Part shown: positions 56,701-64,000 of the stretch, piece by piece
How positions within the stretch are numbered: position 1 is the first letter of the stretch
Layout: every line of letters starts with the position of its first letter
Source: Escherichia coli
GTDB lineage: Bacteria > Pseudomonadota > Gammaproteobacteria > Enterobacterales > Enterobacteriaceae
Reading direction: 5' to 3' (one strand)
Assembly (NCBI RefSeq): GCF_046105845.1
Contig: NZ_CP151004.1
DNA: 64,000 nucleotides
The notes under the pieces: generated by a model
Databases searched by the model: none
The model's input: the letters and a program-made list of their open reading frames with translations, nothing else
What the model was told of the DNA's origin: nothing
Position numbers and translations under genes: made by a program

Positions 56701-57624
56701 ATGTCAACTCAAAAATTAAAATTTAGCCATATCAAAAACGATCTGAAAGCAATAGTTATGCAGAATCGTGGAGGGCAAAAAGTTATTGAGCGTATACTCC
56801 TAGCCTATGGCTTCAAGTCACGACAGGCATTATGTAATCATCTAGGTATTTCCCAAAGTACTATGGCCAACAGATATGCACGTAATACCTTTCCTGCAGA
56901 TTGGGTTGTTATATGTTCCATAGAAACAGGAGCATCAATTGAATGGTTAGTTCTTGGTTCAGATACTGCTCCTTCATCAGAGCAATATTCTGAAAAACAT
57001 GCCGTTAATGGCCTTTGCAATGAAGTATACATTCCCACTATAAAGTTCGATAATGAAAAACTCATGAATTTTAACCGAGGGGGTAAGGCAACAATAGAAC
57101 GAATTGTCGAGGCTTACGGTTACAAAACGCGCCAAGCATTAGCTGATCACCTAGGTATTTCAAAAAGCACATTAGCCACACGATACATGCGTGACATTTT
57201 TCCTGCAGACTGGGTTTTGCAGTGTGCAATAGAAACGGGCCATTCTATTGAATGGATTTCATTTGGTACAGGAGAAATGAAAAACACAAAAAATAAAGAT
57301 ACTTTAACATTAGTGAAAAAAGTATTAATCAATGGCAAGTTAATAAATGATGGCTCATATTTATTTGACCCATGCTTTCTACCTTCCAATTTAAAAAATG
57401 CATTCGTAGTATCTACCGAAGACTCTGAATTAATATGTGAAATGGGTTTTAAAGATGTACATGATGGTAAGTGGCTAGTAAATATTGATGGAGAGAATTC
57501 ATTTAGAATGATAACTCGACTACCTAAAGGACGAGTTTATATTTCATCCCAAAATCACTCTTTTGAATGTTCGCTTACAGACATTGAGTTTATTGCAAAA
57601 GTTATTATAAGTTGTTTACATTAA
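56701..57624 (+). CDS. CI-repressor paralog with a duplicated N-terminal HTH domain
   Basis: 307 aa; two tandem copies of GG..IER...AYG.K.RQAL..HLGIS.ST.A.RY.R..FPA.WV, then a CI-like C-domain; AT-rich. Confidence 0.6.
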   Translation: MSTQKLKFSHIKNDLKAIVMQNRGGQKVIERILLAYGFKSRQALCNHLGISQSTMANRYARNTFPADWVVICSIETGASIEWLVLGSDTAPSSEQYSEKHAVNGLCNEVYIPTIKFDNEKLMNFNRGGKATIERIVEAYGYKTRQALADHLGISKSTLATRYMRDIFPADWVLQCAIETGHSIEWISFGTGEMKNTKNKDTLTLVKKVLINGKLINDGSYLFDPCFLPSNLKNAFVVSTEDSELICEMGFKDVHDGKWLVNIDGENSFRMITRLPKGRVYISSQNHSFECSLTDIEFIAKVIISCLH

Positions 57625-57649
57625 GTAAATTTTTCATGGAGACTTCATA

Positions 57650-59167
57650 GTGAAATGTGGTGATTGTAATTGGAACTGGGATGAAGAAACTACCTTTATA
57701 TTAGACGACGAAGAGGAAATTCTTTCCAAAGACAAACTTAATCGGAGACACTATGCAGAATATCTATATTTTTATCTTAAGGAAAAGGGGCAAAAGAACA
57801 ACACGGTAATCAACCTTAATGCAGAATGGGGAGCTGGTAAAAGTTTTTTCATAAAGAGATTTTATAACTCAATAAAAGATGCACACCCATGCGTTTACAT
57901 TGATGCCTGGAAGCAAGACTTTTCTGATGATGCATTTTTAACCCTTTTTTCTTCTTTGTCACAACAATTGCAAACATATGCAGGAAAACTTGATGCTCGA
58001 TTGATACAAAGCGGCCATGCTATCGGACGCTTTACAAAAGGTGTTCTACCTGAAATCATATCTGGCCTAATCAAGACTTATGCAGGAGTAGATAACGTAG
58101 GTGATATAGCCAAAGAAGCCTCATTAATAATGCTGAAGGAACACCAGGAAAAACTGAAGAGCATTAAGGTATTAAAAAAAGAACTAACGTTATGGTCTAG
58201 GTTGGCATATGAAAATAGTTTTTCATGTCCTATATTTATCTTTATAGATGAATTAGACAGATGCAGGCCAGATTATGCAATTTCTCTTTTAGAGATTGTT
58301 AAACATATATTCGATATTAAAAATTTTGTCTTTATTATTGCTACTGACACAGATCAATTACAACATTCAATCAAGAATGTTTACGGTAATGATTTTTCCG
58401 CAAATGACTATTTAGGCCGTTTTTTTCATAGAAGATTTACTTTAAAACAACCTGAACTTAAAGATTTAATTAATGGTGTTATTGGTGATTATATTGGTAC
58501 CGATTTTGAAAATATCACATCAAAAACATACCCACTAACAGCAACATTAGAAGACTTTTCAATAAATATTTCCAACGTATTTGAAGCATTTGGGTTAAAT
58601 CTAAGAGACTCAATCCGAAATACTGAAAGGTTAATAGACATTCTTAAATCTGATTTAGTCAAAAAGAAAGTAGATTATATTTTTATAATTTCGCTAATGA
58701 TTATATATGATAAGGATCGTCAAATTATAGATGGACTAATTGGTCGAAGAAATGCAGCACAACGTTTCACTGATTCGATAAAGCAAAGCTCCAATTTAAA
58801 AGGTGTTTCTCAAGCCATCCTTGAATTAAATCTTGATACAAATCAGCAAAGAATAGGTGTCAATTATATCTATAGAACGGCGAGCAGTAGATTATTCATC
58901 TCACAGATCGAGCCCAAAATAAATTTAACATTAATAAATTACTTAGATGTTGCATTGTATTTTATTAATAATATAAACATGCTTAAATCAAGTATAAAAA
59001 ACAATGGGCAAAATTCACTAATGATTATATCTCAACAAGGCCCTATTGATGGTGATACAGCTATAAAGTATTTGCAAGGAGCCCTTATAGAGAATGGTCT
59101 GAATACATCTTTTTATGCCTTACATAATTACATTGAATTAATTGAACTGGCCACATCATTTGATTAA
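57650..59167 (+). CDS. KAP-family P-loop NTPase
   Basis: 505 aa, GTG start after GGAG; Walker A NAEWGAGKS; Walker B IFIFIDELDRCRPDY; AT-rich by eye. Confidence 0.7.
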   Translation: MKCGDCNWNWDEETTFILDDEEEILSKDKLNRRHYAEYLYFYLKEKGQKNNTVINLNAEWGAGKSFFIKRFYNSIKDAHPCVYIDAWKQDFSDDAFLTLFSSLSQQLQTYAGKLDARLIQSGHAIGRFTKGVLPEIISGLIKTYAGVDNVGDIAKEASLIMLKEHQEKLKSIKVLKKELTLWSRLAYENSFSCPIFIFIDELDRCRPDYAISLLEIVKHIFDIKNFVFIIATDTDQLQHSIKNVYGNDFSANDYLGRFFHRRFTLKQPELKDLINGVIGDYIGTDFENITSKTYPLTATLEDFSINISNVFEAFGLNLRDSIRNTERLIDILKSDLVKKKVDYIFIISLMIIYDKDRQIIDGLIGRRNAAQRFTDSIKQSSNLKGVSQAILELNLDTNQQRIGVNYIYRTASSRLFISQIEPKINLTLINYLDVALYFINNINMLKSSIKNNGQNSLMIISQQGPIDGDTAIKYLQGALIENGLNTSFYALHNYIELIELATSFD

Positions 59168-59229
59168 AAGCATTGTTTGAATAAACTAAACCATACATTG
59201 ACCACTGGTCAAACATACAGTTAAATTTA

Positions 59230-59248
59230 GCCCTCTGATATGAGGGCT
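59230..59248 (+). terminator. hairpin plus T-tract after the KAP gene, abutting the int start
   Basis: gccctc-tgatatg-agggct then TTTATT, then ATG of int. Confidence 0.55.
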
Positions 59249-59253
59249 TTATT

Positions 59254-60306
59254 ATGGCAGTACGAAAACTCACCACAGGAAAATGGCTTTGCGAATGTTA
59301 CCCCGCCGGACGTAGTGGGCGTCGTGTGCGTAAACAATTCGCCACCAAAGGCGAAGCACTGGCTTTTGAGCGTCACACGATGGAAGAAACCGAAGCAAAG
59401 CCCTGGCTGGGTGAATCAGTGGATCGTCGAACACTGAAAGACGTGGTTGAGCTATGGTTCAAACTACATGGTAAATCTCTGACTGCTGGGCAGCATGTCT
59501 ATGACAAATTGCTGCTGATGGTTGACGCTCTGGGCAATCCCCTTGCAACTGATCTAACCTCTAAAATGTTTGCCCACTATCGAGATAAACGCCTGACAGG
59601 TGAGATCTACTTCAGTGAGAAATGGAAGAAAGGAGCAAGCCCGGTCACCATTAACCTGGAGCAAAGCTATCTAAGTAGTGTTTTTAGCGAACTATCCCGC
59701 CTGGGCGAATGGTCGTATCCGAACCCACTGGAGAACATGCGAAAATTCACCATCGCAGAAAAAGAGATGGCATGGCTTACCCATGAGCAGATTGTTGAAT
59801 TACTAGCTGATTGCAAACGTCAGGACCCAATTCTGGCACTGGTAGTTAAGATATGCTTAAGCACAGGCGCACGCTGGCGAGAAGCCGTAAATCTTACCCG
59901 CTCACAGGTGACCAAATACCGAATTACCTTTGTAAGAACGAAGGGGAAGAAAAACAGAAGCATCCCTATCAGTAAAGAGCTTTACGAAGAGATCATGGCG
60001 CTTGATGGGTTCAATTTCTTCACAGACTGCTATTTTCAATTTTTATCCGTGATGGAAAAAACGTCTATCGTGCTCCCTCGCGGTCAACTCACACACGTTC
60101 TGCGCCATACGTTTGCGGCGCACTTCATGATGTCGGGTGGAAACATTCTGGCTTTACAAAAAATTCTCGGACACCACGATATAAAAATGACTATGCGTTA
60201 CGCACATCTGGCACCGGATCATCTGGAAACGGCGCTCCGTTTCAATCCTCTGGCAACGCTGCCAAGTGGCGACAAAGTGGCGGCAGCGGTTGGCATTACC
60301 CCGTAA
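59254..60306 (+). CDS. int: tyrosine integrase (P2/186 Int family)
   Basis: MAVRKLTTGKWLCECYPAGRSGRRVRKQFATKGEALAFE; LSTGARW; HxLRH; terminal Y region MRYAH. Confidence 0.9.
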   Translation: MAVRKLTTGKWLCECYPAGRSGRRVRKQFATKGEALAFERHTMEETEAKPWLGESVDRRTLKDVVELWFKLHGKSLTAGQHVYDKLLLMVDALGNPLATDLTSKMFAHYRDKRLTGEIYFSEKWKKGASPVTINLEQSYLSSVFSELSRLGEWSYPNPLENMRKFTIAEKEMAWLTHEQIVELLADCKRQDPILALVVKICLSTGARWREAVNLTRSQVTKYRITFVRTKGKKNRSIPISKELYEEIMALDGFNFFTDCYFQFLSVMEKTSIVLPRGQLTHVLRHTFAAHFMMSGGNILALQKILGHHDIKMTMRYAHLAPDHLETALRFNPLATLPSGDKVAAAVGITP

Positions 60307-60442
60307 TAACCACCACTGACCACCAACCCAACTTATTGTTTTTACTCTAAGTTATTGTTTTCATTAACCCGTTTACATAAATGGGTAATTTGTATTGTTG
60401 AATAGCATCTGATGAGAAATTGATGCTAATATTATAAACATA

Positions 60443-60616
60443 CTAGATTAAATCAATCTTGATATCATAGCTTTCAAGACCAGTCATTTTTTCCCGTGCA
60501 GTAAACTGGATACTGGTAACTTCTTTCCCGGTCTTTTTCTTAAGCTCAATGATTTTTTTTGTTATATATTCAGAAATATCTGCTTCTGTTTTTGTTTTTA
60601 ACTCTTCAATGTTCAT
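60443..60616 (-). CDS. GnsA/GnsB-family small protein
   Basis: ORF 60443-60709; MNIEELKTKTEADISEYI...FTAREKMTGLESYD matches remembered GnsB. Confidence 0.7.
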   Translation of the reverse strand: MNIEELKTKTEADISEYITKKIIELKKKTGKEVTSIQFTAREKMTGLESYDIKIDLI

Positions 60617-60788
60617 CATTTCCTCTTTTAGTCTGTTATGACTTTCCTGGTACACAGTAGTGTCAATTATATGGAGCAAACGTATAAAAGATAAGATGAA
60701 ACATCGCAATAATCAACATACGACGGTCTAAATTTCACACAAACAGATAAAGATGATTATCATTTATTATCAATGCATTAGAATCAAA

Positions 60789-61019
60789 TCAATTCAAGAG
60801 TCTCATTGCTGCTTCCAGAATTTCTTCTGAAGTTACATGTCGATCCGCTGCTACATAAATGACTTTATGATCTCCGGTCAGAGATGGAAACCCTGCAGCC
60901 ATTACAGTGAGGTGTGTTGTTTCGCCATTTGGATATTCACGCATGATGGTGTTAACTCCGGTCATCACTGGCACTACCATTGCTGGTTCAGAGTTAAAAA
61001 AAACTATTATTTTTTTCAT
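60789..61019 (-). CDS. hypothetical small prophage protein
   Basis: ORF 60789-61058, internal ATG at 61019. Confidence 0.35.
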   Translation of the reverse strand: MKKIIVFFNSEPAMVVPVMTGVNTIMREYPNGETTHLTVMAAGFPSLTGDHKVIYVAADRHVTSEEILEAAMRLLN

Positions 61020-61290
61020 AATGTTACCGTAATATGTGAGTATCCATCGACTAGACACTAAGCAAAAAAGCTCCCGAAGGAGCCTTCATTTTCACTTTCT
61101 TAAATCTAACGACAGACGGCTAACATTTAAGTATTGTGAAATATTATCAAATGTAATCATCATTGATTTACAAAAGATACATTTTGCCCCGAAAGGATTC
61201 CTGTCAGAAACATCAAAAGATGATGTTCTATACTGAGAACCATGGCAACACGGGCATCTAAAGTGAATATGGTTTGTAATATTTTCTACC

Positions 61291-61503
61291 TCAAAGTGCC
61301 ACTACATGAACAGCCGCGGGGCCTTTAGGTCCGTTCTCAATACCAAATTCGACTTCCTGATTCTCAGTTAACGTTTTGAAATCGTTGCTCTGAATAACTG
61401 AGAAATGGACAAACACATCTTTGCTACCATCTTTCGGCGTGATGAAACCAAAACCTTTTTCAGGGTTAAACCATTTCACTAAACCAGTCATTTTGTTAGA
61501 CAT
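61291..61503 (-). CDS. CspA-family cold-shock protein (CspI/CspB-like)
   Basis: [23 protein letters not shown]...VHFSVIQ RNP motifs; long AT-rich leader. Confidence 0.9.
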
Positions 61504-61866
61504 CATTATTACCTTTTGAAGAAGTTAGCCCTTGGGCAGAATGGTCCGAAAAAAAATATCAGAGAGAAAAACCAACAAGGAGATCTCAAGAGGTACAAAT
61601 AATAAAATTATAACAATGACTGCTTCAGATAATTTTGTAACAAACCAGAACACCATTAACGCATGATTAACCAACCATAGCAAGGATTACTTTTGTAAAG
61701 AAAAACACACGAATGAAACAATAGCTTTATTTATTAATAAAACGTGTCATTCTGTCTAATGACCTTTTATCTTACCCTTAAGATTTCAAGGATTTTGACT
61801 CATGGAAGAGTCCTTTTTATTTAAATTTCACATTCAGCGCTAAAAATAATCCGATTTAATATTAAT

Positions 61867-62894
<1,028 letters not shown>

Positions 62895-63215
62895 GGATAT
62901 TTATCAGGATTTATCGGCTTCAAATCCCCGGATATGTTAAATCTTACCTCACCAGTGATGGGCACTGGCGGGAGGAGGATGTCAATCTGATAAACACAGA
63001 GGTGACTATGGATTACACAAATCTACCAAAACAAACTTTTGCTGATTTAATCGCACTCAGGCAAGCAGTCGTAGCTCTAATCAACTTGTTGCCGGAGAAG
63101 GAAAAGGAATTAGTTAAAGCGCTTCTTAACAGAACTGCCGCCGATTTTTCATCATATCCACTGACAGATGACCTTGCGGACCTTCCTGAATTAATTGCAG
63201 CGTCCGCCATTAAGC

Positions 63216-63767
63216 TTACTGAAGAGATTTACCCTCCTCAAAAATCTTCACAAAATTCCTGCGAGTAACTTCAATGCAATAATCGTAAAACGCCGCAAAC
63301 TGCTCATCGCGGCGTTTTTTTTCATCTTCAGAAGGGATCAGCACCGACAATTTTTTATTCAGATCAGCGACGCTGCCCTCCAGTTTTTCAATGGGCGATT
63401 CAATATCATCTTTTTCTGACCGCAATGCCGTCGGTGGCGTCTTCAGAGAACCAGTAATTCTTCCCGGTAGCTTTCCTTTGTAGGTTATCCACACATTCTG
63501 CGCCTCTAAAATTATGGGGCGCTTTTCCGGCGACTGCTCATCCCCTACACATAACCCGGCAGCAACATCCAGGAATACCTGTCTGATTCTCATTCTGGCT
63601 GCTGCCTCATAAAACTCCAGCGCGGCACCTTCAACACGGTCCAGCGAGATGTCCAGGTCAAAAATTTCACCGTCAAAGCGTTTTTTGTCCCGTAAGGCTA
63701 CAGTTACCGCCACTTTATTCTCAAAATTGCGGACTCCTTTCACAACCAGTTCATAGTCTTGTGTCAT
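63216..63767 (-). CDS. hypothetical protein inserted between holin and endolysin
   Basis: ORF 63216-63788 (TTG); ATG at 63767 with purine-rich RBS. Confidence 0.45.
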   Translation of the reverse strand: MTQDYELVVKGVRNFENKVAVTVALRDKKRFDGEIFDLDISLDRVEGAALEFYEAAARMRIRQVFLDVAAGLCVGDEQSPEKRPIILEAQNVWITYKGKLPGRITGSLKTPPTALRSEKDDIESPIEKLEGSVADLNKKLSVLIPSEDEKKRRDEQFAAFYDYCIEVTRRNFVKIFEEGKSLQ

Positions 63768-63771
63768 TGGA

Positions 63772-63987
63772 TTACTCTCTTCTCGCAACCTTACGCCTGT
63801 CTTCTTTAATCTTGAAATAAAGGTTTGTCAGATACGTCAGCAGGCCAAAAACCAGACTACCCAGCACACCGATTGCAGCCCACTGTGACGGAGTTACTTT
63901 ATCGAGTAACTGCAATGCCCAGAAACCAGCATTACCAGCCGATGTGCCATAGGCGATACCTGTTGTTAACTTATCCATTGATTTCAT
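63772..63987 (-). CDS. holin (EssD/EssQ-like)
   Basis: [26 protein letters not shown]...[14 protein letters not shown] matches remembered EssD. Confidence 0.85.
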
Positions 63988-64000
63988 ATCCTCACCCCGA

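Follow-up and report, generated by a model that had tools for sequence, protein, structure and literature searches.

The closest described relative of the gene considered here is YdfR (P76160) of the Qin prophage of Escherichia coli K-12, and the first functional clue for its family, binding to RNase E, dates from 2026 only. The only experimental data on the family are for this K-12 protein: a bacterial two-hybrid screen recovered it, and its residues 1-72 were enough to bind residues 1-597 of RNase E in such an assay (Gopel et al. 2026, PMC13232886). Strep-tagged K-12 YdfR co-purifies Rne 1-598 together with DNase-resistant nucleic acid, although the RNA might, by the authors' account, have come from a contaminant (PMC13232886). 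The K-12 gene is silent in standard growth conditions, its overexpression changed few transcripts and caused no growth defect, and binding was measured for the 103-aa K-12 protein only, using overexpressed fusion proteins (PMC13232886). Our literature search found a single paper containing the term "DUF1327", the Pfam name of the family.

The window, the whole stretch of 64,000 nucleotides of E. coli DNA that was analysed (contig NZ_CP151004.1), carries a minus-strand lambdoid lysis cassette in its last 2.2 kb, and the genes of this region are as follows.

63772-63987, minus strand: S21-type class II holin, essQ-like, 71 aa (Pfam PF04971 Phage_holin_2_1, E 7.3e-34)
63216-63767, minus strand: YdfR/DUF1327-family gene, 183 aa (Pfam PF07041, E 1.8e-41; phrog_2091, 183/183)
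63008-63268, plus strand: gene of 86 aa, convergent and antisense to the late operon (phrog_2572, 86/86, E 1e-53; RefSeq WP_001306174.1, "hypothetical protein")
62361-62894, minus strand: endolysin, rrrQ-like lysozyme, 177 aa (Pfam PF00959 Phage_lysozyme, E 2.6e-24; phrog_7; RefSeq rrrQ)
61867-62364, minus strand: Rz-like i-spanin, rzpQ-like (Pfam DUF2514, E 1.9e-38; phrog_312, Rz-like spanin)
61917-62171, minus strand: embedded Rz1-like lipoprotein ORF with lipobox LTSC (from the ORF translation and the K-12 rzpQ/rzoQ layout)

The holin has the dual-start motif MKSM, matches the holin families phrog_9876 and phrog_20 and is named essQ in RefSeq. An initial annotation, made from the letters alone, had described an ORF between holin and endolysin on their strand, with an 88-aa ORF on the opposite strand overlapping its 3' end. 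This layout was confirmed: the first ORF spans 63216-63788 (minus strand, 190 aa from TTG), the second 63002-63268 (plus strand, from GTG), and they overlap by 53 nt. K-12 Qin has the same essQ-ydfR-rrrQ order and the same flanking holin, lysozyme, Rz/Rz1 and csp genes, and over residues 1-72 the two YdfR proteins share 60/72 residues (83%). They differ beyond this core. K-12 YdfR has 103 aa, its short helical tail is a different one, and its gene directly adjoins rrrQ, whereas the window protein has 183 aa with a middle segment and a helical extension, and lies 321 nt from the lysozyme gene with the antisense gene in between, which K-12 lacks. An Rfam scan of 60300-64000 gave a cspA thermoregulator as its sole match; a GcvB hit over 63146-63323 was set aside as chance (E 0.69; 18 bits, gathering score 42).

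The gene between holin and endolysin had been taken for an unknown gene with no recognisable motif. It is a member of the YdfR/DUF1327 family: its first 112 residues, counted in the 183-aa reading, match Pfam PF07041 (DUF1327) with 140.7 bits against a cut-off of 25, and phrog_2091 is matched end to end over all of its 183 profile positions. The 951 bp around the gene are identical (100% at the DNA level) to those of E. coli CFT073, S88, APEC O1 and many other genomes, and on that DNA RefSeq lists essQ, a "YdfR family protein", the "hypothetical protein" WP_001306174.1 and rrrQ. It is thus an ordinary, already annotated passenger of the YdfR family in its canonical place; both ORFs are in RefSeq. 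In Pfam, in PHROG and in the family alignments, homology sets in at residue 8 of the 190-aa ORF, and the start was therefore assigned to the ATG at 63767, 4 nt past the holin stop, giving a protein of 183 and not 190 aa; the TTG at 63788 is not the family start. The protein is divided into three parts.

63552-63767, minus strand: N-terminal core of YdfR, residues 1-72 (AF2 model; 60/72 identical to K-12 YdfR)
63432-63551, minus strand: DUF1327 middle segment, residues 73-112 (Pfam match to residue 112; alignment)
63216-63431, minus strand: variable C-terminal extension, residues 113-183 (AF2 helices 123-143 and 147-182)

In the AF2 model, which has a mean pLDDT of 66 over the whole protein, the core is predicted as beta-beta-beta-alpha, with three strands and one long helix (pLDDT 72-88), and it retains every residue that is invariant in the family alignments (Y5, E6, L7, G47, Y53, E54 and A57). 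The middle segment is conserved in most family members yet is modelled as disordered, with pLDDT below 50 for residues 75-121. The extension is predicted as a helical hairpin or coiled coil (pLDDT 63-78). Neither the alpha-beta-beta-beta-alpha fold of a double-stranded RNA-binding domain nor a dsrm profile match was found in YdfR, and Foldseek searches against BFVD and PDB returned nothing below E 0.01, so that no fold was assigned. PDB sequence-profile matches to the C-terminal helices (coiled-coil, PARP1-linker) were compositional and non-specific (E at least 0.0016). A match of the N-terminal domain to P0188, a 3128-aa G2F-repeat protein, was rejected as chance inflated by repetition, a 52-aa segment of 35% identity being repeated six times. 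YdfR has no transmembrane or signal segment (highest 19-aa Kyte-Doolittle window 0.96). Pfam and PHROG lysis families gave no match for YdfR or the 86-aa protein, nor did NCBIfam, and PADLOC defence HMMs matched neither of them, nor two other antisense partners, at E ≤ 1.

The explanation that we favour, with moderate confidence, is that YdfR is a soluble late passenger of an S21-type cassette whose N-terminal core contacts RNase E, and that its tail and the antisense gene form an exchangeable module. YdfR would be an optional, cytoplasmic product of the late operon, standing outside the lysis machinery. By extension from the K-12 protein we infer that the beta-beta-beta-alpha core would bind host RNase E in the N-terminal, catalytic half of the enzyme, and might also bind RNA, and that the protein would be made late in the lytic cycle, when this contact may modulate the decay or processing of RNA. 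A 657-bp exchangeable module contains the C-terminal helical tail together with the 86-aa gene and its terminator.

62905-63561, no strand: 657-bp variable module comprising the middle and C-terminal part of YdfR, the antisense gene and the terminator (blastn against K-12)

Homology to K-12 is confined in blastn to 64000-63562 and 62904-61801, and between these blocks 657 bp stand in place of 92 bp in K-12 Qin. With 41-42% GC, the antisense gene and the C-terminal extension fall below the 50% of the window. The full module of the window type occurs in 282 of 5426 complete E. coli genomes, and part of the module region or relatives of YdfR in at least 2378 of the 5426. The alleles of the junction between holin (S) and endolysin (R), of which there are at least five, were compared in 80 IMG/VR loci with a close N-terminal domain, in all of which (80/80) an S21-type holin comes before it.

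YdfR of 116 aa: gap to R 63 nt, about 42 loci, no antisense ORF
YdfR of 114 aa: gap to R 343 nt, about 15 loci, antisense ORF of 90 aa (phrog_2411)
YdfR of 183 or 176 aa: gap to R about 320 nt, about 14 loci, antisense ORF of 86 aa (window type)
YdfR of 268 aa: gap to R 452 nt, 4 loci, antisense ORF of 104 aa (phrog_1853)
YdfR of 104 aa: gap to R 55 nt, 4 loci, no antisense ORF

Every long gap between YdfR and R holds an antisense ORF, each with a strong Shine-Dalgarno sequence, and BLASTP gave no alignment among the three antisense ORFs of the S/R junction. Since each long gap carries an antisense ORF unrelated to the others, the slot between YdfR and R is a cargo hotspot.

The family is small: among 1.8 billion representatives it accounts for 76 clusters at 50% identity. 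By tblastn, 100 GenBank phage records contain the DUF1327 core, and all belong to lambdoid phages of E. coli, including H-19B, BP-4795, YYZ-2008, mEp460, Stx2-86 and many Stx1a and Stx2c phages; YdfR occupies the S/R junction in K-12 Qin, BP-4795, YYZ-2008 and mEp460 as well as here. S21-type holins occur in 438 GenBank phage records, about 77% of which lack YdfR, and from the 100 and 438 records YdfR is an optional passenger in about a quarter of S21-type cassettes. The expectation that holin and endolysin are normally adjacent is thus right for the majority, as in phages 24B and SfI, where S and R adjoin directly with a 4-nt or overlapping junction; in 100 of the 438 records with an S21-type holin, a YdfR gene is placed exactly at this junction.

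The 86-aa ORF within the module is probably a real gene. It most likely starts at the ATG at 63008 (86 aa) and not at the GTG at 63002, as judged from its position relative to the first of two accompanying signals.

62999-63004, plus strand: Shine-Dalgarno sequence GAGGTG of the 86-aa gene, read from the sequence and kept in all variants
63287-63322, plus strand: hairpin resembling an intrinsic terminator, AAAACGCCGC, 12-nt loop, GCGGCGTTTT, then 8 T (RNA fold)

The hairpin lies 19 nt past the stop of the gene and is kept in the variants. It folds with -17 kcal/mol (z -2.4) on the plus strand and with -23 kcal/mol (z -3.5) on the minus strand, which there encodes KKRRDEQFAAF of YdfR; a terminator scan with a loop limit of 8 nt skipped it because its loop is longer. 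The ORF is intact in 6/6 sequence variants of 90-100% DNA identity, and its rare protein variants are due to in-frame indels. Its pN/pS is 0.35-0.63, from few changes. Codon-position counts (7/4/12) cannot tell it from a shadow ORF on the minus strand (63013-63210), as the two share third positions; the quality of the substitutions could. In the 86-aa frame they are conservative (L/V, E/D, L/I, Y/F; mean BLOSUM62 +0.6 to +1.3), whereas the same substitutions are radical in the shadow frame (mean BLOSUM62 -1 to -2). The product is small and acidic (pI 4.6), with a three-helix AF2 model (pLDDT 74.5). Its highest 19-aa hydropathy, 1.62, falls in an amphipathic helix with D, R and Q, and it has no transmembrane segment. 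At E ≤ 0.001 its relatives form 18 clusters, confined to E. coli and Shigella, with one weak partial match in Salmonella; searches gave no distant homologues, no Pfam match and no fold match, and no paper naming WP_001306174 was found. A scan for sigma-70 promoters upstream of the gene gave no consensus site, its best candidates being no better than shuffles. By eye, TTATCG and TATGTT, 16 nt apart at 62911-62938, form a weak promoter candidate. The suggestion that the locus holds a moron was right in part: there is an optional passenger at the S/R junction, in a module that is present or absent, and the antisense ORF comes with a Shine-Dalgarno sequence and a terminator of its own and is low in GC. 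The antisense gene appears to behave like independent moron-type cargo.

The extension raises the question of how much of the 183-aa frame is functional. Only the DUF1327 part of about 112 aa might have a function, with the longer frame an accidental read-through created by recombination of the antisense module and residues 113-183 its debris. PGAP annotates 336 nt, the first 112 codons, as a pseudogene "missing C-terminus" and leaves the extension out; the commonest YdfR alleles stop at 114-116 aa, and forms of 103-116 aa do not have the extension, which is in part the reverse complement of the terminator and 3' end of the antisense gene. Compared with its counterpart in P0151 the extension has a pN/pS of 2.4 (1 synonymous and 9 non-synonymous among 10 changes), and compared with P0176 of 0.81 (45 changes). 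These ratios point to near-neutral change under weak constraint, and part of the 183-aa ORF may be functionless. Other observations speak against debris. In P0151, which lies upstream of a different lysis cassette, the extension module follows an unrelated N-terminal domain, and in P0176 it forms the N-terminus of a separate protein. The frame stays open in forms of 176, 183, 211, 287 and 296 aa, the 176- and 211-aa forms being set apart by in-frame indels of 21 and 84 nt, and AF2 predicts the helical hairpin described above. We regard accidental read-through as doubtful.

Another proposal arises from divergent members of the family. The most divergent DUF1327 genes, which encode 71-94 aa, are located away from the S/R junction.

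L011: divergent DUF1327 between tail genes M and L
L012, L101, L102 and L103: divergent DUF1327 after tail gene I and before J
L093: divergent DUF1327 after Rz
L096: divergent DUF1327 after a holin and a P0176-type gene

At all seven of these loci a small convergent ORF directly follows the DUF1327 gene, with a spacing of -4 to +49 nt, and each partner tested belongs to a PHROG of its own without an assigned function. Two pairings recur at different insertion sites: the phrog_25324 partner occupies the M/L junction of L011 and the I/J junction of L101 and L102 (70% identical), and the phrog_10490 partner in the lysis cassette of L096 and the tail cluster of L103 (37% identical, E 7e-15). From this recurrence it seems that DUF1327 travels with its convergent neighbour, a pairing that is previously unreported. 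Apart from L011/L101 and L096/L103, homology among the antisense partners was rejected, BLASTP giving only E ≥ 0.3 and no match across PHROGs at E ≤ 10. A scan with a divergent DUF1327 query found nothing.

The pair could accordingly be conceived as a mobile two-gene functional unit, in which a late DUF1327 protein would counteract, by way of RNase E, cargo expressed from the prophage or its antisense RNA. In a detailed form of this proposal, DUF1327 would direct RNase E to sense/antisense duplexes and so spare late expression, and the cargo, at least six unrelated families of small, acidic and helical proteins, would supply exchangeable functions of the lysogenic phase. The convergent ORFs at the seven divergent loci, the repeated pairings at different sites and the antisense genes in three alleles of the S/R junction are all consistent with such a unit. 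However, the commonest alleles (116, 104 and 103 aa; K-12, BP-4795, mEp460) do without a partner, and a scan for promoters found none for any partner, those at eight other loci yielding none that was convincing. A specific protein-protein pair is disfavoured because the partners form at least six families without detectable similarity, and DUF1327 could be merely the conserved flank of a cargo hotspot. We judge the functional unit improbable, and its detailed form similarly so. The pairing at different late-operon sites nevertheless offers an inexpensive, testable way into the question of how late transcription and prophage cargo coexist.

The remaining suggestion, made in the initial annotation, was a lysis regulator; as a cytoplasmic timing factor, YdfR might bind the tail of the S21-type pinholin or antiholin, or control endolysin release. 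Its translation would be nearly coupled to that of the holin, across a 4-nt gap equal to the S-to-R spacing of phages without YdfR, and the 80 close relatives all sit after S21-type holins. A K-12 ydfR mutant was also among the hits of a screen for envelope integrity (Paradis-Bleau 2014, as cited in PMC13232886), a result that polarity of the insertion on rrrQ could explain. The analysis gave no support for a lysis role, which is improbable because YdfR, like the 86-aa protein, has no membrane segment, most S21-type cassettes (about 77% of the phage records) do without the gene, overexpression is harmless to growth (PMC13232886), and divergent members lie far from any holin, in the tail clusters at M/L or I/J or after Rz.

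YdfR is best read, as proposed above, as a late passenger, and genes of its family are among the most frequent uncharacterised passengers of the lysis cassettes of E. coli and Stx phages. The antiholins S21-71, P1 LydB and T4 RI/RIII are likewise encoded inside or beside the holin-endolysin pair. YdfR shares this position with them but differs in having no transmembrane segment and no homology to them, and in belonging to a family that is not confined to lysis cassettes.

The lambda morons bor and lom are optional cargo of the late operon, and bor is antisense to late transcription. The 86-aa gene is like bor in this orientation, and it likewise has its own Shine-Dalgarno sequence and terminator, a lower GC content and a presence/absence pattern between collinear phages. 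Unlike Bor and Lom, its product is soluble and acidic, without a signal peptide or lipobox, and no promoter was found; the slot in the window also lies inside the lysis cassette and not after Rz, as that of the lambda morons does.

Phage proteins that modulate RNase E include T4 Srd and T7 gp0.7. Dip of phiKZ is a further phage-encoded RNase E modulator (PMC4980113), and the host adaptor RapZ contacts the catalytic N-terminal domain of the enzyme (PMC7430671). If the K-12 result transfers to the window protein, YdfR would be loosely like Dip, Srd and gp0.7, with which it has no homology, as a small phage binder of RNase E, and like RapZ in contacting the catalytic N-terminal domain.

The YdfR gene is called a pseudogene of only 336 nt with a 'missing C-terminus' by PGAP in CFT073, S88 and strain 12089. 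Despite this call, the ORF is open over 183 codons, and its last 71 codons, at the C-terminal end, show near-neutral evolution. Beyond its stop codon lies a 65-aa 'shadow' ORF that runs in the direction of the late operon.

63216-63767 of the window (L001 6583-6918): YdfR gene called a pseudogene by PGAP
63013-63210 (-): 65-aa shadow ORF, starting 5 nt past the YdfR stop

The shadow ORF is open in all variants because its third codon positions are common to those of the 86-aa plus-strand gene. It carries radical substitutions and is therefore probably non-coding.

Just upstream of the lysozyme start, the three alleles with antisense genes share a plus-strand sequence, TTATCGG...GGATATGTT. In the 116-aa allele, which lacks an antisense gene, this place is occupied by GGACAGGTT. 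The shared sequence could be a weak promoter common to the three alleles, or merely a recombination boundary.

62911-62938 (+), with homologous positions in L005, L006 and L023: TTATCGG/GGATATGTT sequence

Divergent DUF1327 genes occur in tail-gene clusters or after Rz in seven loci (L011, L012, L093, L096, L101, L102 and L103), and each is followed directly by a small convergent ORF.

Divergent DUF1327 genes with convergent ORFs (coordinates of each locus)
L011, 449-1001
L012, 4001-4506
L093, 503-1328
L096, 924-1443
L101 and L102, 3001-3548
L103, 3001-3576

The pairing with a phrog_25324 partner is found at two insertion sites, the M/L and I/J tail-gene junctions, and that with a phrog_10490 partner likewise at two, one within a lysis cassette and the other among tail genes.

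Protein P0151 also has the YdfR C-terminal helical module, there fused to an unrelated N-terminal domain, and its gene precedes a lysis cassette of another kind (Phage_holin_8, Phage_holin_3_7 and GH108). In phiSTEC1575-Stx2k, a further holin/endolysin set, unlike the first, comes after an S21-type holin, YdfR and an antisense gene.

L094 3001-5530; L099 1581-3599: loci for the P0151 fusion and the phiSTEC1575-Stx2k double lysis set
P0188, residues 381-431 and five further repeats: repeats resembling YdfR

P0188 is a giant G2F-domain repeat protein of 3128 aa in which six repeats match residues 6-57 of YdfR with 35% identity (library E 5.9e-9). The resemblance is probably due to chance and inflated by the repeats.

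Many E. coli genomes match the prophage segment 60381-64000 at 100% identity. Within the collection, no complete E. coli genome continues unbroken past ~60381 into the DNA upstream (57000-60381), which contains an integrase-like ORF.

59254-60306 (+): integrase-like ORF

The DNA adjoining the lysis end of the prophage differs from that in CFT073 and S88. Just downstream of Rz, a full-length match to the Rfam cspA thermoregulator RF01766 (61245-61650, minus strand; 116.8 bits, E 1.8e-30) spans a cspI-like cold-shock gene, both its leader and its ORF (61291-61506), and K-12 Qin is arranged in the same way.
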